DNA of 53,196 nucleotides, taken from positions 1 through 53,196 of the IMG/VR virus record IMGVR_UViG_3300036985_003763; one strand, written 5' to 3'. Positions within the stretch are counted from its first letter, which is position 1. Every line of letters begins with the position of its first letter. Made by a program: the position numbers and the translations under genes. The notes beneath the pieces were generated by a model. That model saw only the letters and a list, made by a program, of their open reading frames with translations, was not told the DNA's origin and searched no databases. Origin of the DNA: a virus (lineage: Duplodnaviria > Caudoviricetes). Positions 1,790 through 44,981 of this stretch are shown piece after piece.

Positions 1790-3835
1790 ATGAAAAGTAA
1801 ACAAGAGGCCGCAGGCCTCATTTCCGCCCCCGCTATCTTTACAGACAAGCTCGCCAGCTCAGGTCTGACACTAGAAGACGCCGAAGCACTTGGTATGAAG
1901 TTCTTAGACGATTGCTCTAAGATAGACCCACAGTTTTTAAAAGTGCGCGGTATCCTAATCCCATACTTTGGCATTGATGGTAAGCAGACAGACTTCTACC
2001 GCATACGTTACCTAGACAAGCCTAGTGGGTTTGCAGGTCAAGTTGCAAAGCCCCAACGTTACGCACAAGCTGCAGGTACATTGAACGAGGCTTACCTCGC
2101 CCCCTTAGCGCCTTGGGAGTCCATTGCGCTGCGCCCGGACATTGACATCTTAATTACAGAAGGCGAGCTTAAAGGCGCCAAAGGTACGAAGTGCGGAGTG
2201 CCATGTATTGCGCTCGGCGGTGTGAACACCTGGTCAAGCTCGAAACGTAACATCGACTTGCTTGAGCCGTTGCCTCAAATCAATTGGAAAGGCCGTACGG
2301 TTACTATTGTGTTTGATAGTGACGCGGCGAGTAATCCTAACGTTGCCTTAGCGCAGGTGTCCTTGGCAAAAAAGCTCCTCGCACTTGGCGCTTTGCCCCG
2401 TATCGCGTCCCTACCTACTACAAGTTCAGGTGAAAAACAGGGTTTAGACGACTATTTGGTCGCTGGCGGCGAGATTGAGGAAATCTTAAAAGACACTAGG
2501 GGCTTGGCGCTAGGTGAGAGGCTCTCAGAGCTGAATTCACGTTTTGCCTATGTCATAGATCAAGACCTCATCGTTGAACGCGTTAACGGGCGCCGTATAA
2601 GACGCGAATCTTTCTGCAACGGTCACTTTGCCAATAATAACATCACAGAGTACCTAACTTCAGGAAATGGTAACGTTAAGAAGGTAGAAGTAAAGGTTCC
2701 GATGGAATGGCTCCGTTGGACTGCCCGAACAGACGTTAAGACCATGACATTCAAACCCGGCAAACCGTCTATTGAGGATGGTGAGTACAACACTTGGGCA
2801 GGCTGGGCAGTCGAGCCTAAAAAGGGCAACATCAAACCATGGGCTGAGTTGCTAAGTCATATCTTCGGCGACGAGATAATGGCGCGGGACTGGTTCGAGC
2901 AATGGATTGCCTACCCTATGCAGAACCCTGGTGCGAAGATGTTCACCAGCGTAGTGATATGGGGTCCGGAACAAGGTACAGGTAAGTCGTTACTAGGTTA
3001 CACGATTGGCTCTATCTATGGCGACAACTTCACCGAGATTGGTAACGCTGAGTTGCACAGCACCTTTAACGAGTGGGCTATCAACAGGCAGTTCGTGATG
3101 GGCGATGAGATTACGGGCAGTGACCGCCGTACGGAGGCCGATAAAATTAAGGCGATGATTACGCAGAAGTTGCTACGCATCAACATGAAGAACCTGCCCA
3201 CCTACACGGTGCCTGACTGCATCAACTACTACTTTACGTCGAACCATCCTGCTGCGTTCTTCTTGGATGACCAAGACCGTCGCTTCATGATACATCGCAC
3301 TGCGCAGAAGAAAGCGGAGTCCGTTGAGTTCTACGACAACTACATTAGATGGAAGGACAATGGCGGCACAGAGGCGCTGTTCGACTACTTCCTGAACCTA
3401 GACTTGTCATCGTTCAACCCTACAGCTAGAGCACCAACAACAGCAAGTAAATTAGAGTTGATTGACCACGGTCGCTCAGACTTGAACCAATGGGTGTACT
3501 TCTTTATGGAGAATTTAGACCTAGAATTGCCACGTTTGGCGGAGTACTTGGGTGTGCCTGAAACAGACCTTGACCTTGTGCTCAACAAGCACTTGAAGTG
3601 GTTATATGACCCTAACGACAATAAGCGTGTGACATCTAATGGCATTGGTCGTGAGATGAGCCGTTGCGGTGCCAAGACACTGCCACAGACACGGACAGAT
3701 ACGTTCGGCAAACAACGCTTCTACGTACTTCGTAACGAGGAGAAGTGGTTGAACGCTAAGCCTGACACAGTGCGCGAACACGTAGATAAAGTATTCGCGG
3801 TTTCCGAGGCAATGGCTAAGGTTTCTAAGTTCTAA
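1790..3835 (+). CDS. Primase-helicase: TOPRIM-like (DUF3854-type) plus SF3 helicase (DUF5906-type)
   Basis: ITEGELKG, IVFDSD and QGLDDYL TOPRIM motifs; Walker A GPEQGTGKS, Walker B VMGDE, FTSN, DRRF. Confidence 0.9.
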   Translation: MKSKQEAAGLISAPAIFTDKLASSGLTLEDAEALGMKFLDDCSKIDPQFLKVRGILIPYFGIDGKQTDFYRIRYLDKPSGFAGQVAKPQRYAQAAGTLNEAYLAPLAPWESIALRPDIDILITEGELKGAKGTKCGVPCIALGGVNTWSSSKRNIDLLEPLPQINWKGRTVTIVFDSDAASNPNVALAQVSLAKKLLALGALPRIASLPTTSSGEKQGLDDYLVAGGEIEEILKDTRGLALGERLSELNSRFAYVIDQDLIVERVNGRRIRRESFCNGHFANNNITEYLTSGNGNVKKVEVKVPMEWLRWTARTDVKTMTFKPGKPSIEDGEYNTWAGWAVEPKKGNIKPWAELLSHIFGDEIMARDWFEQWIAYPMQNPGAKMFTSVVIWGPEQGTGKSLLGYTIGSIYGDNFTEIGNAELHSTFNEWAINRQFVMGDEITGSDRRTEADKIKAMITQKLLRINMKNLPTYTVPDCINYYFTSNHPAAFFLDDQDRRFMIHRTAQKKAESVEFYDNYIRWKDNGGTEALFDYFLNLDLSSFNPTARAPTTASKLELIDHGRSDLNQWVYFFMENLDLELPRLAEYLGVPETDLDLVLNKHLKWLYDPNDNKRVTSNGIGREMSRCGAKTLPQTRTDTFGKQRFYVLRNEEKWLNAKPDTVREHVDKVFAVSEAMAKVSKF

Positions 3836-4341
3836 AACTTGTTAACGATGGGGTCACGGACTGAAGCTAGTCCGCCTTGATAGTACATTTCTAGTATGTC
3901 GGCTTCGTCTTCTACAGGCAACACGTCTGTAGGGGCGGTACCAAAGTCATTCTCTTTGGCATACTTAGCGGCAAGGTCTATCAATTCTTGCTGTGTGTAT
4001 TTCTTACCCTTAGCGGCCTTGATACCAGCCAAGTCTTGTTGCATGTTGTCCCGCGCATTCTTAGAAAGACCGTGGTTTAGCAATTGGTAGATAATTGCCA
4101 AAGCGCTGTCCGTAGTTTCGCCGAACGGAGAACGTTGTGCCCAGTCCATAGCACCAGCATACTCAGCAGCAGTGTCACGTGGTGAACCCACAGCGCGAGC
4201 ACGACCTAGTTCGGGGTACTTAGCACTTAGTTCTAAGGGCATCGCCTCGTTGTACCAGGTCTTGTGCTTATCAAACTCTTTAGCCGCTTTTTTAGGTTTG
4301 GCTACGACTTCGGTAACTTTCTTAATTATCTCTAGTGCCAT
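3832..4341 (-). CDS. Hypothetical late protein
   Basis: Start overlaps upstream stop (TAATG); C-terminal YYQGGL motif. Confidence 0.7.
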   Translation of the reverse strand: MALEIIKKVTEVVAKPKKAAKEFDKHKTWYNEAMPLELSAKYPELGRARAVGSPRDTAAEYAGAMDWAQRSPFGETTDSALAIIYQLLNHGLSKNARDNMQQDLAGIKAAKGKKYTQQELIDLAAKYAKENDFGTAPTDVLPVEDEADILEMYYQGGLASVRDPIVNKF

Positions 4342-39131: not shown

Positions 39132-40691
39132 TTACGCAGCGTAAGGGTTAGTCTTGGGTTTTTCCCAGTACTCTTCTTCCATATCGTCCACTGCTTCGAG
39201 CGTTAGGAAGCCTGAATCCTTCAAATATATCAGCGCTTGCGTTGTACAGTCCACTCTATCGTCGTGCTCGCCCGCTGGGAACTTCTCCATCTCGTCGATA
39301 ACGTCCTTCGCCCAGCTCACAGGCTTGCCTTTGTTCTTTTTACTTTCTATAACGTACACCAACCCTGCGTCTATGATTGGCGCAATCATGTGTGCCCGTG
39401 AGACTTTGTCCGCCCTGCCAGGGTTGTAACCTCGCACTGGGACGTTCGCACGTCGCAAGTCTTGGATTAGCGACTGCCCGCTGGCTTTTTCCTCTATCAG
39501 CACCAAGTCCGTCTTGCGTCCTGGGTTACCGAGGTCGTCTGGATTACCTGCGTAGGAGTCACTGTACTCTGAGATGACCCTGCTTCTTAGGTCTGGGTAA
39601 CCTAGGTGCTCCGCCCAGGCGTCCATCATCAGCGCCACGTTCTCCCCGTGACGTTGCACTATGCCCCAGACCGTGCAGGCACTAGGGTCCCCTGATGTTT
39701 TTTCTGTGAAGGCCGTATCGTACGACTGGATGACATACTGCAATGGTGGAATAGGTTCTTTGGCTGGCCACAACTTAATGTTGTCAATTTTAATAATACC
39801 ACCGCCTGCTGGTGACGGCGATTGTTGCAACTGCCCCGCCGTACCATACTCACCCAGCGCAGCCTTGATTGGCGCCAGTGCTTTCGTATCGTAGAGCTCC
39901 GGCCACAGCAACTCACCTTTTGTCGTTCTAGGGTCGTACTTACCTAGGCTTGTCTTCCTCACCACCCCGTCCCACTCAGCTGGTAGGCACAGGTGCTCGT
40001 AACCACCCACTCTTAGCAGGTGCCCCGTCAGGTCTCGTTCGTGCAACCTTTGCATCACGATAACTTTGCTGCCTGTCTTAGGATTGTTTAGTCGCGTTGA
40101 CATGGCTTGGTCCCACCACTCAATCACGCCTTCTCGTATAACGTCCGACTGCGCTTCCATCGCCGAGTGCGGGTCATCCACCACAATCGCGCTACCACCC
40201 ATACCCGTAGTCGTACCACCCACGGACGTCGCAAACCGGTAGCCATACATGTCGTTCTCGTAGAAGGTCTTGGTGTTCTGGTCCCCAATGAGGCTAAACT
40301 TCTTGCCCCATCGCTCTTGGAACCACGTACTTTGTATCATGCGTCGGCACTTGAGCGAGTCCCGCATTGACAGGTTGCCTGAGTACGACGCGAACAGCCA
40401 TCTAAACTCTGGGTTATTGATCCACGTAAATACTGGCCATGCTACTGCGACCAATATAGACTTACAGTGGCGCGGTGGCATATTAATAATAAGATTACGA
40501 ATTTTACCTTCTGATACTGCTTGAAGATGGTCACAAATTGTTCTTAGATGCCACCCTTCAACAAAGGGAGTACCTGGCTCAATAACATCCCAAGCTTGTT
40601 TCATAAATTCGTATAGCGAAATTTCAGCTTTACGTTTATCTTGTTCAAATTTTACAGCCTTTAACAAGGCATTCGGGTTTACTATCGCCAT
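39132..40691 (-). CDS. terL: Terminase large subunit
   Basis: NMPPRHCKS Walker A, VVDDP Walker B, MQRLHE, YDTA, HDDRVD nuclease motif. Confidence 0.95.
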   Translation of the reverse strand: MAIVNPNALLKAVKFEQDKRKAEISLYEFMKQAWDVIEPGTPFVEGWHLRTICDHLQAVSEGKIRNLIINMPPRHCKSILVAVAWPVFTWINNPEFRWLFASYSGNLSMRDSLKCRRMIQSTWFQERWGKKFSLIGDQNTKTFYENDMYGYRFATSVGGTTTGMGGSAIVVDDPHSAMEAQSDVIREGVIEWWDQAMSTRLNNPKTGSKVIVMQRLHERDLTGHLLRVGGYEHLCLPAEWDGVVRKTSLGKYDPRTTKGELLWPELYDTKALAPIKAALGEYGTAGQLQQSPSPAGGGIIKIDNIKLWPAKEPIPPLQYVIQSYDTAFTEKTSGDPSACTVWGIVQRHGENVALMMDAWAEHLGYPDLRSRVISEYSDSYAGNPDDLGNPGRKTDLVLIEEKASGQSLIQDLRRANVPVRGYNPGRADKVSRAHMIAPIIDAGLVYVIESKKNKGKPVSWAKDVIDEMEKFPAGEHDDRVDCTTQALIYLKDSGFLTLEAVDDMEEEYWEKPKTNPYAA

Positions 40692-40694
40692 TAT

Positions 40695-41231
40695 TTACCC
40701 AAAATTAGCATACTCATCATGGTATATTGTAACAGCTTCACAGTACGCTTTATGAGCTTCTTCTGCTGTTTTGTACGAGCCTACTTTTTTTCTAAGCTTA
40801 TTAACTTTTATTTCTACGTAGTATGCTTTTTCTTTTTTTCTATAATATACACCTTTTAAACCTAGTTTATTAAGTATACTTACTTTCTTATTTTGTGCAT
40901 TTTGCACATGCGTGGCTTCTCTTAAATTCTCAATTCTATTATCTTTTCTATTTGAATTAATATGATCTATCAAATTTAGAGGGTCTACTTTTTTAAATAA
41001 TTTCCATACAATTCTAGATACTTTATATCTGCTACCGTCTATACAAACCCTATAATATCCTTCTCCCGCATCATTATCTACTAATTTACCAGCATACGCG
41101 CTTTTAAAGTGTAATTGTGATTTTTTAGTTTGGAAATGATGTTCAGGTCTATTTTTCCACGTTAGCATGCCTGTTTGTGAGTCATACTCAAAACATTCGT
41201 GTAGGTATTCTTGTGATGGTAGTGGCTTCAT
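40695..41231 (-). CDS. HNH-AP2 homing endonuclease
   Basis: IDHINSNRKDNRIENLREAT; GLKGVY...AHKAYCEA AP2-like tail; low GC. Confidence 0.92.
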   Translation of the reverse strand: MKPLPSQEYLHECFEYDSQTGMLTWKNRPEHHFQTKKSQLHFKSAYAGKLVDNDAGEGYYRVCIDGSRYKVSRIVWKLFKKVDPLNLIDHINSNRKDNRIENLREATHVQNAQNKKVSILNKLGLKGVYYRKKEKAYYVEIKVNKLRKKVGSYKTAEEAHKAYCEAVTIYHDEYANFG

Positions 41232-41335: not shown

Positions 41336-41776
41336 TTAGTTAGTTGCTTCTGGAGCCGCTTTTGCAAGCAGCGTTTGCAATGTTTCTAGTTCTGTGTCCG
41401 ACAAATTGGCTAACGACGACGCGTCTATCTTAATAGCACCACCGTCTTTACCCGATACTTCTAAATTAGTTGGTATGGCTCGCATTGAGTAGGTCATCAA
41501 TGTTTTGGCTGCTGAAATACGCTCGTTAGGGCTGCAGAATGGGTTCACCATCAGTCGACGGAGAATGTCCATCGGGTGCTGCGGCAACTCAGCCACGTAT
41601 TGCGCTTGTATTTTCAAGGCTTCTGGAGACAACGGGTCCACGCCCTTACGTCCGATACCTTCTATGTATGCCAGAAAGTTAGCGGTGTCCGTAGAGTCGG
41701 AAGTGTCTATCGGTAACGTCTCTTTAGAATTGTTTGCCATGGTTGGGTTTTTATCATTATTAAACAGACCTGTCAA
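41336..41776 (-). CDS. terS: Terminase small subunit (likely start MANNSK near 41740)
   Basis: ERISAAKTL and EVSGKDGGAIKI...LSDTELE motifs; upstream of terL. Confidence 0.75.
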   Translation of the reverse strand: MTGLFNNDKNPTMANNSKETLPIDTSDSTDTANFLAYIEGIGRKGVDPLSPEALKIQAQYVAELPQHPMDILRRLMVNPFCSPNERISAAKTLMTYSMRAIPTNLEVSGKDGGAIKIDASSLANLSDTELETLQTLLAKAAPEATN

Positions 41777-41849
41777 TAGTATACCATATATATTTTGCCT
41801 ATGGGACCTATTGTGTTATATTGTGGAATCTTCGTACTAGGTACTTCGC

Positions 41850-42221
41850 ATGCCGTTCAAGGATCCTGACAAGCGTAAGGAGAGAGGTAAGGTTTACTCC
41901 AAGCGCCATTACGAGGCCAACCGCCCTGCCCAAATAGAGCGCGTTCGCCTGAACAAAATTAAAAAGCGCCTCGAGTGGGAGACTTACAAGTCCACCCTCC
42001 AGTGCGCTAACTGTGGTGAGAACCACCCCTCCGCTTTAGACTTCCACCACGTAGAACCCCATCCCGACAACCGCAAGATTAGTGAACTAGCTCAGAACGG
42101 CGCTTACAAAATGGCCCGTGAGGAAATAGAATCCAAGTGCATCGTACTTTGCGCCAACTGCCACCGCAAGCACCACCCCGAAGAACGCCAACTAAAGGCA
42201 GGTCAGATTACTGAGAAGTAG
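41850..42221 (+). CDS. HNH endonuclease with Zn finger
   Basis: CANCGENHPSALDFHH...EIESKCIVLCANCHRKHH. Confidence 0.9.
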   Translation: MPFKDPDKRKERGKVYSKRHYEANRPAQIERVRLNKIKKRLEWETYKSTLQCANCGENHPSALDFHHVEPHPDNRKISELAQNGAYKMAREEIESKCIVLCANCHRKHHPEERQLKAGQITEK

Positions 42222-42308
42222 GCGTAGATTCGGTAGTTGTTACATGTAACGCAGAAAGCCGAAAAACTCGTTACTTACTACATCCTCTAGTGTCGGCTTA
42301 ACCGCCTA
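42219..42308. ncRNA. Candidate pseudoknotted non-coding RNA
   Basis: Nested pairs TAGGCG/CGCCTA, TAGA/TCTA, GTAGT/ACTAC and GTAACG/CGTTAC, plus crossing AAGCCGA/TCGGCTT. Confidence 0.6.
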
Positions 42309-42313
42309 AAAAC

Positions 42314-42766
42314 TTATTTACCAGTAACAAAGTCTTTAGCGCAAGCTTGTGCTTTAGCTAAGTCTTTAAAGTTTCCAACGTGTATAGATTTGTTGTTTAC
42401 TGTAAAACTAACTTTGTAATAATTTCTGTCTTTCGATACACCATAAATACCCGTATTGCTTGGCATACTTGGTTTATTTAAAGCATTTTCTCTGTAGTTA
42501 ACTAATCGTAAATTTTCAATAGTATTATCAGATTTATTTCTATTAACGTGATCAATCTGTTTATCAGATGGTATTTCACCCTTTAGCAAAGACCATATTA
42601 ATCTATGCGCGTAGTATTTAGTTTTGTTAAACTGTATAGCAATGTAGCCTTCTTTTCTTAAAGTTCCAGCTTTTTTACCAGTTGCTTTCCAATACAAATT
42701 ACCATTGTTATACTTAAATAAATTTAATAACTCATCTAGAACAATAGGCTTTTTAACAATTTTCAT
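42314..42766 (-). CDS. HNH(-AP2) homing endonuclease
   Basis: YYAHRLIW...IDHVNRNKSDNTIENLRLV...NTGIYGV; low GC. Confidence 0.92.
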   Translation of the reverse strand: MKIVKKPIVLDELLNLFKYNNGNLYWKATGKKAGTLRKEGYIAIQFNKTKYYAHRLIWSLLKGEIPSDKQIDHVNRNKSDNTIENLRLVNYRENALNKPSMPSNTGIYGVSKDRNYYKVSFTVNNKSIHVGNFKDLAKAQACAKDFVTGK

Positions 42767-42773
42767 ATATTAC

Positions 42774-42872
42774 CTTTCAGTGTAAGGTCCGTAAGAAATT
42801 TAAGTACTACCAGACGGTTACTGAAGCCGTGCGTGACCGCTAAGTCACTCTGGTAGTATTACTAATATATCA
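42774..42872 (-). ncRNA. Extended -10 promoter plus three-way-junction leader RNA
   Basis: TGATATATT; 10-bp stem TACTACCAGA/TCTGGTAGTA enclosing GTGAC-TTAGCG-GTCAC and ACGG-CTTCAGTAA-CCGT. Confidence 0.65.
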
Positions 42873-42878
42873 CAAATA

Positions 42879-42950
42879 TTAACGATTCATAACATATAAA
42901 GTTACTTCAAAACCGAAACGCATTATGGTTGCTGCTGGTGTAGTCCACAT
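42879..42950 (-). CDS. pqqA: Pyrroloquinoline quinone precursor peptide
   Basis: MWTTPAATIMRFGFEVTLYVMNR; E-x3-Y motif; AGGAGA RBS; below ORF-track cutoff. Confidence 0.93.
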   Translation of the reverse strand: MWTTPAATIMRFGFEVTLYVMNR

Positions 42951-43134
42951 GGTAATTCTCCTAGTTAGTAATGTGCAAAAAATGCACATATGTACATATT
43001 TCACTGTTTTTTATACACATCGTGTGTATATGTATAGATTTTGCTCTTTTTTGTACACGTTACAATACAGAAAACCATTATTTATGCTATATTTATTGTA
43101 CGCAGTTTTTTAATTTACAAGGAAGGTATCCATT

Positions 43135-43293
43135 ATGGCAACAGCTAAGAAAGGTCTGTATGCAAACGTTCATGCTAAACGTAAACGTATTGAAGAAGGC
43201 TCTGGCGAGAAGATGAATAAAGTAGGCTCTAAAAATGCACCTTCTGACAAAGACTTTAAAGACGCAGCTAAGACTAAAAAGAAAGGAAAGTAA
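43135..43293 (+). CDS. Small basic phage protein (GLYANxHAKR type)
   Basis: MATAKKGLYANVHAKRKRIEEGSGEKM...; AAGGAAGG RBS; not in ORF track. Confidence 0.8.
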   Translation: MATAKKGLYANVHAKRKRIEEGSGEKMNKVGSKNAPSDKDFKDAAKTKKKGK

Positions 43294-43294
43294 T

Positions 43295-43561
43295 ATGCCC
43301 ACGACTAAAGACTCTCGCTTAGAACGCGCTGGTGTGTCCGGCTACAACAAACCTAAGGCAACTCCTGGTCACCCAACTAAGTCCCACGTGGTGGTGGCCA
43401 AAGAAGGTGACCAAGTCAAGACCATTCGCTTTGGTCAGCAAGGCGTCAAGGGTAGCCCCGAAGGTAGCGCTCGTAACGACTCCTTCAAAGCACGTCACGC
43501 CAAGAACATTGCCAAGGGCAAGATGTCTGCTGCGTATTGGGCAGACAAAGTTAAGTGGTAA
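43295..43561 (+). CDS. Small basic phage protein (IRFGQQG...SFKARH...SAAYWA type)
   Basis: Conserved motifs; likely start MPTTKD right after the upstream stop. Confidence 0.8.
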   Translation: MPTTKDSRLERAGVSGYNKPKATPGHPTKSHVVVAKEGDQVKTIRFGQQGVKGSPEGSARNDSFKARHAKNIAKGKMSAAYWADKVKW

Positions 43562-43619
43562 TCCGTAACACTCAAATTCCGTAGTCTGTAACAATCCTCG
43601 TTTTATTCCACACAACCCA

Positions 43620-44129: not shown

Positions 44130-44981
44130 ATGACGCAAGCTATCTATCAACAAGTGACTGACACTATTATCGCTCAGCTTGAGCAAGGCGCGGAAGCATG
44201 GGCTAAATGCTGGGCGGCTAACAGCCAAGCGCCTAGCAATCTAGTAAGCGGCAAGGCATACGGCGGCATTAATAACTTAGTGCTAACACTTGCCGCCAAT
44301 GCGCGTGGCTTCACTAGCAATCAATGGGCGACTTATCAGCAACACGCCGCCGCCGGCTATCAAGTGCAGAAGGGCGAAAAAGCCACCACAATCATTTTTT
44401 ATAAGCCCGTCGCCGGTAAAGTGGACGCGGATACTGGCGACGTCACTAGCGGCTATGCCGTGCTAAAGTCATACAGCGTATTTAACTTAGCTCAAACCGA
44501 CGCGCCGGCGCAACCAGCCGCGCCGCTCGATACTTTCGAAGCCATTGCAGAATGCGAAGCGCGTATCGTGGCGACGGGCGCTGATATTAGACACGGCGGC
44601 GACCGTGCATTTTATCGCCCTGCCGATGATAGTATTACCTTGCCACCTCGCGCCAGCTTCACCACGCCAGCCCATTATTATGCCACTGCCTTTCATGAGC
44701 TAAGCCACTGGACTGGCGCGAAGCATAGACTAGCCCGTGACTTATCCGGACGGTTCGGCAATGAAGCCTACGCCGCCGAGGAACTTATCGCCGAACTAAG
44801 CGCGGCATTTCTTTGCGCGTCGCACGGCGTGACTGGTGACTTGCGCCACGCTGGTTATATTGAAAGCTGGTTGCGCGTGTTGCGCGATGATAACAAGGCT
44901 ATATTTAAAGCGGCGGCATTGGCGCAAAAAGCGGCGGACTATGTGCAAGGCGTCACGCACGCCGAAGCTGTAGCGGCTTAA
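44130..44981 (+). CDS. ardC: ArdC-like ssDNA-binding/zincin antirestriction protein
   Basis: YGGINNL, WATYQQ, VQKGEK, VFNLAQ, AFY, FHELSHWTG, YAAEELIAEL and YIESW motifs. Confidence 0.92.
   Translation: MTQAIYQQVTDTIIAQLEQGAEAWAKCWAANSQAPSNLVSGKAYGGINNLVLTLAANARGFTSNQWATYQQHAAAGYQVQKGEKATTIIFYKPVAGKVDADTGDVTSGYAVLKSYSVFNLAQTDAPAQPAAPLDTFEAIAECEARIVATGADIRHGGDRAFYRPADDSITLPPRASFTTPAHYYATAFHELSHWTGAKHRLARDLSGRFGNEAYAAEELIAELSAAFLCASHGVTGDLRHAGYIESWLRVLRDDNKAIFKAAALAQKAADYVQGVTHAEAVAA

Follow-up and report, generated by a model that had tools for sequence, protein, structure and literature searches.

What is the short stretch of DNA that lies between the stop codons of two convergent HNH genes in a phage genome, and does it encode an RNA? 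The window that we analysed is the whole of one complete IMG/VR record of 53,196 bases, and CheckV gives its source virus a completeness of 91. The packaging and structural genes are on the minus strand, and a block of plus-strand genes extends from 43135 onward. Near this junction lie four items: a plus-strand HNH gene, a 90-nt element, a minus-strand HNH_3 gene, and pqqA, the gene for a 23-aa PQQ precursor peptide (Table 1). An earlier note, made from the letters alone, described the element as a compact pseudoknotted RNA candidate with four nested helices and a 7-bp crossing pair, and proposed a ribozyme, a small RNA (sRNA), or an exonuclease-blocking element.

Table 1. Features of the junction; R1 and A1 are the covariance model and the alignment described in the text, and the 5' and 3' strands of helices are named in the sense of the RNA.
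Feature	Positions	Strand	Remarks
TerL	39132-40691	-	
HNH_3+AP2 gene	40695-41231	-	splits the small- and large-terminase positions
146-aa gene, small-terminase position	41336-41776	-	named from position alone, upstream of TerL
HNH endonuclease gene, 123 aa	41850-42221	+	convergent with the RNA; stop codon within the P1 3' strand
Structured small RNA (At1-like), ~90 nt, closed by P1	42219-42308	-	R1 match, covariation, G.U asymmetry
P1	42303-42308 (5' strand) with 42219-42224	-	A1 columns 6-11/91-96; 6/6 pairs change on both sides; inner four 97-100% paired
Pseudoknot	42293-42299 (5' strand, AAGCCGA in RNA sense) with 42256-42262 in the P3 loop	-	A1 columns 15-21/52-58; 99.9% paired; 5/7 covary
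P1b	42286-42289 (5' strand) with 42225-42228	-	A1 columns 25-28/87-90; 99.3% paired; 3/4 covary
P2	42277-42281 (5' strand) with 42233-42237	-	A1 columns 33-37/77 + 79-82; 99.8% paired; 5/5 covary
P3	42269-42274 (5' strand) with 42246-42251	-	A1 columns 40-45/63-68; 97.1% paired; 4/6 covary
HNH_3 gene, 150 aa	CDS 42314-42766	-	PF13392, E 1.4e-17
Putative inserted HNH_3 homing-endonuclease cassette, ~565 nt	42314-42878	-	CDS 42314-42766 plus upstream region
pqqA, 23-aa PQQ precursor peptide	42879-42950	-	TIGR02107, 34.7 bits (cut-off 20)

The setting is as the earlier note described it: the plus-strand HNH gene ends in a TAG at 42219-42221, and the stop codon of the HNH_3 gene is at 42314-42316. 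Both flanking genes are of the HNH type, the 150-aa protein through PF13392 and the 123-aa protein through PF01844 (18.4 bits, below the cut-off) and the PHROG HNH families that its homologue matches. The crossing pair is also present, AAGCCGA (42256-42262) being complementary to TCGGCTT (42293-42299), and a terminator U tract is lacking on both strands, by inspection and by a terminator scan that found no terminator-like site (a GC-rich hairpin followed by a U tract) on either strand of 42219-42313. A wider scan of 41700-43200 was uninformative, with five promoter-like sites against 4.1 expected and one terminator-like site against 1.1 expected. Neither strand of 42222-42313 contains an ORF of at least 20 aa, and a protein-coding reading was rejected; ARAGORN found no tRNA or tmRNA gene in the window. 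Folding of the single sequence was no better than chance (plus strand, z -0.17; minus strand, z +0.60 and +0.49), 72-142 of 200 shuffles folding as well as, or better than, the native 90 nt. Because the predicted single-sequence folds are no better than those of shuffles and miss the pseudoknot, we do not use them as evidence.

Comparison with relatives was more informative. By blastn at E<=1, the RNA matches none of the 50,697 phage records and 72,556 plasmid records of cultured collections. A search with the HNH protein gave 163 related viral stretches, 80 loci of which were kept, and a search with the 146-aa protein gave six loci, for a total of 86. In 39 of these, nhmmer found the element 40 times: 30 copies are near-identical to that of the window, one is intermediate, and nine are divergent. 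The near-identical copies share 97.8-99% identity over 88-98 nt, whereas identity falls to 72-85% in the adjoining HNH coding DNA and to about 78-86% in the pqqA DNA, which puts the constraint on the RNA. In at least ten related loci the HNH gene and pqqA are about 45 nt apart and the element is absent, so the RNA is dispensable. A degenerate search pattern built from the conserved unpaired bases matched at least 119 viral stretches, and 117 pattern-selected viral loci, unbiased for their neighbours, were used below. Judged from these sequence matches, the RNA is widespread in freshwater phage contigs. Matches to it also occur in 21 sequencing runs, of each of which they form a small share. 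Contigs from four RNA-library runs (four studies) cover only 42218-42313 and have foreign flanks; they define neither ends nor strand and may derive from DNA carry-over. One locus, L011, has two copies of the RNA (3370-3460 and 4086-4176) 716 nt apart, each preceded by the same ~30 nt of the HNH 3' end; the second copy is at the contig end, and the pair may be a terminal repeat or a duplication.

The alignment, A1, contains 102 distinct 99-nt versions with one gap column, drawn from the first set of relatives and from the pattern-found set. In the search pattern the spacing was preset, as was one of the two sides in several pairs, and the sample is thus biased toward this architecture; for this reason the five pairs that never vary are uninformative. 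They comprise the two invariant pseudoknot pairs, one side of which was fixed by the pattern, and the two P3 pairs that do not covary and that the pattern likewise fixed, among others. The covarying positions, on the other hand, were free in the pattern, and the nine divergent copies from nhmmer, which are independent of it, carry the same compensatory changes. Over the five helices, 97.6% of cells are paired, compared with 80.4% in shuffled alignments (none of 500 reaches the observed value) and 34-41% when the partners are slid. Of the 28 pairs, 23 change on both sides (18.5 shuffled, 6-13 slid); there are 475 compensatory cells (105 shuffled, 40-72 slid), and the covariation score is 0.497 (0.164 shuffled, 0.045-0.092 slid). 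RNAalifold, which cannot draw pseudoknots, recovered P1, P1b, P2, and P3 unaided, with compensatory changes in 17 of its 20 pairs.

In other words, the homologues with covarying pairs that the earlier note had proposed to look for exist, and its four nested helices and 7-bp pseudoknot correspond to P1, P1b, P2, P3, and the crossing helix, each supported by covariation among the 102 distinct homologues. On this comparative evidence the 90 nt are confirmed as a real compact pseudoknotted non-coding RNA. The junctions are near-invariant (GGAU opposite CNAA, AA before P3, and a U-run and UUC in the P3 loop), 8-10 unpaired bases separate the 3' strands of P3 and P2, and the 17-nt P3 loop holds both the U-run and the 3' strand of the pseudoknot. 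The closing helix P1/P1b carries a coaxial P2-P3 arm, and seven bases between P1 and P1b pair with the P3 loop. The covariance model R1, built from A1 with the nested helices only, has a single match in the window (42313..42215, minus strand, 114 bits, E 1.8e-32). The earlier note had also pointed to a palindrome, GTTACATGTAAC, through which the RNA might refold. It is present at 42239-42250, but it belongs to the window-type subfamily only: divergent members lose the palindrome and keep P3, and the alternative fold is consequently without comparative support.

The strand, which the earlier note left unresolved, can now be assigned to the minus strand, the same as that of pqqA. Over the 25 inner pairs (the two outermost P1 pairs and the last P3 pair were left out of the count), a plus-strand reading requires 31 A.C cells and one G.T cell, which on the minus strand become 31 G.U and one A.C. 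The sub-threshold Rfam matches to the RNA are in the minus sense, pqqA precedes the RNA on the minus strand in relatives, and the copies in Polynucleobacter have a conserved 16-nt palindrome and a TATAAAGT box just 5' of the RNA in the minus-equivalent sense.

The position of the RNA between two HNH genes calls for an explanation of its own. Three free-standing HNH-type genes lie within 2.1 kb (Table 1), two of them with a GC content near 0.3 in a genome of about 0.5. The block 42314-42878 has a GC content of 0.285-0.325, compared with about 0.5 in its flanks. Its HNH_3 gene is absent in near-identical relatives, where pqqA is within tens of bases of the element, and in two related loci, L007 and L017, the sequence agrees base for base with the window as far as the last position ahead of the HNH_3 stop and then runs on into pqqA. 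We read this block as an inserted homing-endonuclease cassette that parts pqqA from the RNA in this phage only. On the opposite side, the next gene is at about +494 in loci with the HNH gene and at about +114 in loci without it; the HNH gene is thus an indel of ~380 nt exactly at the 3' edge of the RNA. Insertions on either side imply that the ancestral order was pqqA, RNA, and packaging genes, and the 146-aa gene, which has no protein-family match, is the first gene past the RNA once the HNH insert is discounted. By comparison with its relatives, this phage has evidently gained a free-standing HNH gene on each side of the RNA and one more that separates the two terminase genes. A highly conserved RNA gene would offer a stable landing site, on either side of which flanking HNH homing endonucleases may have settled; the DNA of the RNA gene was probably such a landing site independently of the role of the RNA.

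It might be objected that the element is itself only a DNA-level site, such as a homing-endonuclease target, a pac/cos site, or an origin, in which the structure is incidental. Two HNH genes do abut it, and packaging genes adjoin. Compensatory changes nevertheless keep five helices including the pseudoknot, the wobble asymmetry of 31 to 1 is strand-specific, copies occur in bacterial chromosomes away from phage genes, and the relative At1, discussed below, is described as a discrete transcript (PMC3384568). We find a purely DNA-level site hardly credible, while the DNA of the RNA gene can double as an endonuclease target besides encoding the RNA.

The surrounding genes provide some further observations. 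A pqqA gene has already been reported as an auxiliary gene in phages of methylotrophs, as described in the text of Coutinho et al. 2020 (PMC7678222). PqqA peptides near-identical to that of the window are found in 56 of the 117 related viral loci listed, and one bacterial match is on a contig of a Methylotenera metagenome-assembled genome (MAG); this pattern suggests that the hosts are methylotrophs or freshwater betaproteobacteria. The inserted cassette contains, between the stop of pqqA and the start of HNH_3, a very stable branched hairpin of 67 nt (42798-42864; z -4.58, plus strand; z -2.79, minus strand), which has no counterpart among the related loci. The AT-rich stretch 42960-43100, between pqqA and the first plus-strand gene, contains several short inverted repeats and looks like a putative divergent promoter and operator region. 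Two small plus-strand genes follow at 43135-43561 (52 and 88 aa), whose DNA matches cultured marine and freshwater podoviruses at 68-78% (Roseobacter CRP phages, SIO1, pelagiphages, and HMO-2011); with a 2.3-kb junction query, blastn matches in cultured phages were confined to these small genes, at about 43144-43564. The plus-strand gene at 44130-44981 encodes a protein with an ArdC N-terminal domain (PF08401) and a PolyVal zincin metallopeptidase domain (PF18818), and is by these domains a predicted anti-restriction-type early gene.

A PqqA ORF ends 6-198 nt upstream of the RNA, on the same strand, in 56 of the 117 pattern-selected loci listed. Together with L007 and L017, which match the window up to the insertion point, these loci bear out the linkage to pqqA that had been proposed for the locus without its HNH_3 cassette. 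The other upstream neighbours among the 117 loci listed include genes for the major head protein, a PD-(D/E)XK exonuclease, and PPK2. The nearest downstream ORF in the 117 loci listed belongs to the HNH family in 25 (18 convergent and seven co-directional), to a ~98-aa protein in 16, to a terminase-module gene followed by TerL in 11, and to a GH19 endolysin in nine; it is convergent in most of these loci, including all cluster-2 and cluster-17 cases. We considered and ruled out a recoding signal after the pqqA stop, because the spacing between pqqA and the RNA varies from 6 to 198 nt, and a processive antiterminator at the start of an operon, because many copies lie between convergent stops and the bacterial copies stand alone.

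In bacteria, the degenerate pattern found five contigs: one from the Methylotenera MAG, two from other betaproteobacterial MAGs, and two from Polynucleobacter isolates. R1 has matches in 13 of 121 genomes of the genus Polynucleobacter, in two of 141 genomes of the family Methylophilaceae (one of these being the phage-like contig that was used as the centre of the sample), and in one of 151 genomes of the wider order, which is the centre itself. Twelve Polynucleobacter loci have no ORF upstream of the RNA; the neighbours vary, and the nearest downstream ORF is convergent in nine of the 12. The conserved 16-nt palindrome (of the GTGTGCTGCAGAACAC type) and the TATAAAGT box lie about 5-50 nt upstream of the RNA in these loci, which suggests a putative dedicated, regulated promoter. 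The Polynucleobacter copies are often followed by a U-run or a hairpin terminator, and several of them adjoin the end of a tRNA gene. Because these copies stand alone and face convergent downstream genes, the RNA is there an accessory, autonomous RNA gene and not a leader.

These bacterial copies bear directly on the possibility that the RNA acts in cis at the 3' end of a message, its knot blocking 3'-to-5' exonucleases, or marking processing or termination, and so stabilising the short pqqA message or that of another upstream gene. In many phage loci the RNA starts between -14 and +8 nt relative to the upstream stop codon, or a few tens of nucleotides past this co-directional stop, and it is often wedged against the stop of a convergent gene; in several bacterial copies P1 is immediately followed by a terminal U-run. 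Moreover, PqqA is consumed stoichiometrically in PQQ synthesis, so that a stable pqqA message would pay. The copies in Polynucleobacter and Agrobacterium, however, have no upstream ORF and instead have their own promoter-like region or transcription start, the copy of the window has no U tract, and the near-invariance of so many unpaired bases exceeds what a simple block would need. We regard a cis-acting 3'-end element as unlikely, though less so than the other rival readings.

Is the RNA a new family? No Rfam family reaches its gathering threshold in the window, as the search that had been proposed now shows, and none does so in 18 diverse loci. The best permissive match is RF02496 Atu_At1, which aligns over its full length in the minus sense with 19.1 bits (E 0.69) on the window and 20.9 bits on a copy from Polynucleobacter. 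In each of four whole Polynucleobacter carrier genomes, the sole RF02496 match (17.1-22.8 bits) falls exactly on the RNA; neither the phage nor the Polynucleobacter copies reach the RF02496 gathering score of 60 bits. In the reverse direction, the top match of R1 in 56 kb of pAtC58 is At1 (13.8 bits, E 0.14), which RF02496 itself places at 55165-55272 on the minus strand with 115.3 bits. R1 and RF02496 are thus reciprocal best matches at weak scores (14-23 bits against a gathering score of 60), and by these scores the phage RNA is outside RF02496 as curated.

Full-length alignments in both directions nonetheless give the same helix order and the same junction and loop motifs. In both RNAs, P1 is followed by a pseudoknot strand, P1b, a GGAUG-type junction, P2, and a P3 whose loop contains the U-run, the pseudoknot partner, and UUUCU, and each RNA is closed by its own 5' and 3' ends. 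The pseudoknot is likewise present in 11 At1 homologues, two of which (L245 and L247) preserve it through compensatory changes; the Rfam drawing of RF02496 has a small hairpin in place of the pseudoknot strand. At1 differs in being GC-rich and in having a further hairpin that separates the 3' strand of P3 from that of P2 (10 of the 11 homologues) and that the phage RNA lacks. Given the weak scores, the shared architecture, and the missing hairpin, we regard the phage RNA as a minimal, distantly related version of the At1 fold. The word "undescribed" in the earlier note therefore stands as far as Rfam thresholds are concerned, but the RNA has a sub-threshold relative of the same architecture in RF02496.

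The At plasmid of Agrobacterium gives rise to At1 as a discrete transcript, which is strongest when optical density is high; the text of Wilms et al. 2012 (PMC3384568) maps it to 55274-55161 and gives its length as 113 nt by dRNA-seq and 115 nt by Northern analysis. Its homologues occur in 198 plasmid records of Rhizobiales-type bacteria, and on these rhizobial plasmids they often adjoin stress, DNA-repair, or RNA-repair genes. Neighbours of the 11 homologues include ligD and Ku, rtcR, UdgX with a radical-SAM repair protein, a 3-methyladenine glycosylase, CsbD, and general-stress proteins. Upstream of seven of the 11 is a motif resembling GGAAC-N16-17-(C/G)(G/A)TT, which we take to be of the general-stress sigma-factor type; together with the stress and repair neighbours, it fits a general-stress control of the At1 homologues.

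At1 itself lies 54 nt upstream of ligD on the same strand, which, with the aptamer-like conservation of the RNA, invites comparison with a riboswitch-like cis-regulator of a downstream gene (ligD in Agrobacterium, the HNH or terminase gene in phages). In seven loci the phage RNA is 28-58 nt upstream of a co-directional HNH gene, and in 11 of the 117 loci listed it is 35 nt upstream of a terminase-module gene. A consistent position upstream of a co-directional gene, as of a riboswitch or 5' leader, is found neither in the Polynucleobacter loci nor in the 117 phage loci listed: the nearest downstream gene is convergent in nine of 12 Polynucleobacter loci, in most phage loci, and in 18 of the 25 HNH cases. 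Since At1, moreover, ends as a discrete RNA of 113-115 nt in the account of Wilms et al. (PMC3384568), we judge such cis-regulation very improbable.

A new class of small self-cleaving ribozyme, which would free itself or process a polycistronic phage transcript, would suit the compact pseudoknotted fold, the invariant junction bases, the patchy spread over phages, plasmids, and some hosts, and the position between genes of one transcript. The earlier note, comparing by eye, had seen no resemblance to twister, pistol, hatchet, hammerhead, or HDV ribozymes, and indeed no ribozyme is among the three Rfam matches at E<=10 on both strands of 251 nt; that no ribozyme model matches even at this level speaks against the ribozyme. 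So does the order of its helices, which differs from what we take to be the topologies of the HDV-like, twister, pistol, and hammerhead ribozymes. At1 is also not among the eight sRNAs with more than one Northern band in the text of Wilms et al. (PMC3384568); this speaks against a cut within the RNA, though a cut at the 5' edge would be compatible with it. Overall, a self-cleaving ribozyme seems quite improbable.

Among the three roles first proposed, ribozyme, sRNA, and exonuclease block, the stand-alone sRNA has the most support. Its fold, strand, constraint, and distribution and the autonomy of its bacterial copies are established by the comparisons above, and the discreteness of At1 is taken from the published account. 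In the phage, the pqqA transcript, which heads the packaging and structural operon, would carry the RNA as its tail; the RNA would then be self-contained and trans-acting, presenting a rigid surface to a putative conserved cellular partner (a protein or a small ligand); it would not be a regulator of a neighbouring gene. We are highly confident, on comparative grounds, that the element is a genuine pseudoknotted RNA of the At1 type, encoded on the minus strand. The trans-acting, partner-binding mechanism is a tentative proposal, to which we give rather less than even weight, and the joint reading of an At1-type minus-strand RNA with trans-acting partner binding seems to us somewhat better than evenly balanced. 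A bolder thought, in our opinion unlikely, is that the At1-like fold is a new functional class of RNA: either a self-releasing ribozyme that cuts at its own edge, or an aptamer or decoy for a factor linked to stress, RNA repair, or DNA repair. If so, alphaproteobacterial megaplasmids would use the fold under general-stress control, and freshwater phages would have captured it to reprogram their hosts late in infection.

Among the papers listed by a literature search there is no description of the phage RNA, of a pqqA-linked pseudoknot, or of Atu_At1 by name. Fremin et al. 2023 (PMC10690425) predicted 8,495 unnamed RNA candidates from IMG/VR, among which the RNA may already be present; pqq, HNH, and Atu do not appear in the main text of that paper, and the main text of Lee et al. 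2013 has no mention of atu5055, atu5056, or At1. The comparison made here ties an orphan Rfam family to a large clade of phages, and the pseudoknot is a correction to the drawn structure of that family. The RNA is common to freshwater phages, to some of their likely host relatives, and, more distantly, to rhizobial megaplasmids. With nearly every one of its 90 nt constrained, it resembles the aptamers, ribozymes, and RNP cores that have repaid study, and because its strand and borders are fixed, probing, cleavage, and pull-down work can be designed directly. The locus is also a clear natural example of free-standing HNH endonuclease genes that have settled on both sides of a conserved RNA gene.

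How does this RNA compare with known systems? It is like the small self-cleaving ribozymes found near phage genes in its size, its pseudoknotting, its invariant junction bases, and its patchy, phage-associated spread, and it differs from them in that no model of theirs matches at E<=10. The SAM-II and preQ1-II riboswitch aptamers are likewise compact pseudoknots with a U-rich strand by the knot and conserved unpaired bases; in contrast to these, the RNA is not consistently upstream of a co-directional gene, and it has no Rfam match to them. Exonuclease-resistant RNAs are known from eukaryotic RNA viruses. With these and other 3'-end protective structures, which we take to be knotted folds, the RNA shares a position directly after an ORF in phage loci, whereas its bacterial copies stand alone with promoter-like regions of their own. 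Its nearest counterpart in architecture is At1, with which it shares the order of helices, the pseudoknot, and closure by its own ends.
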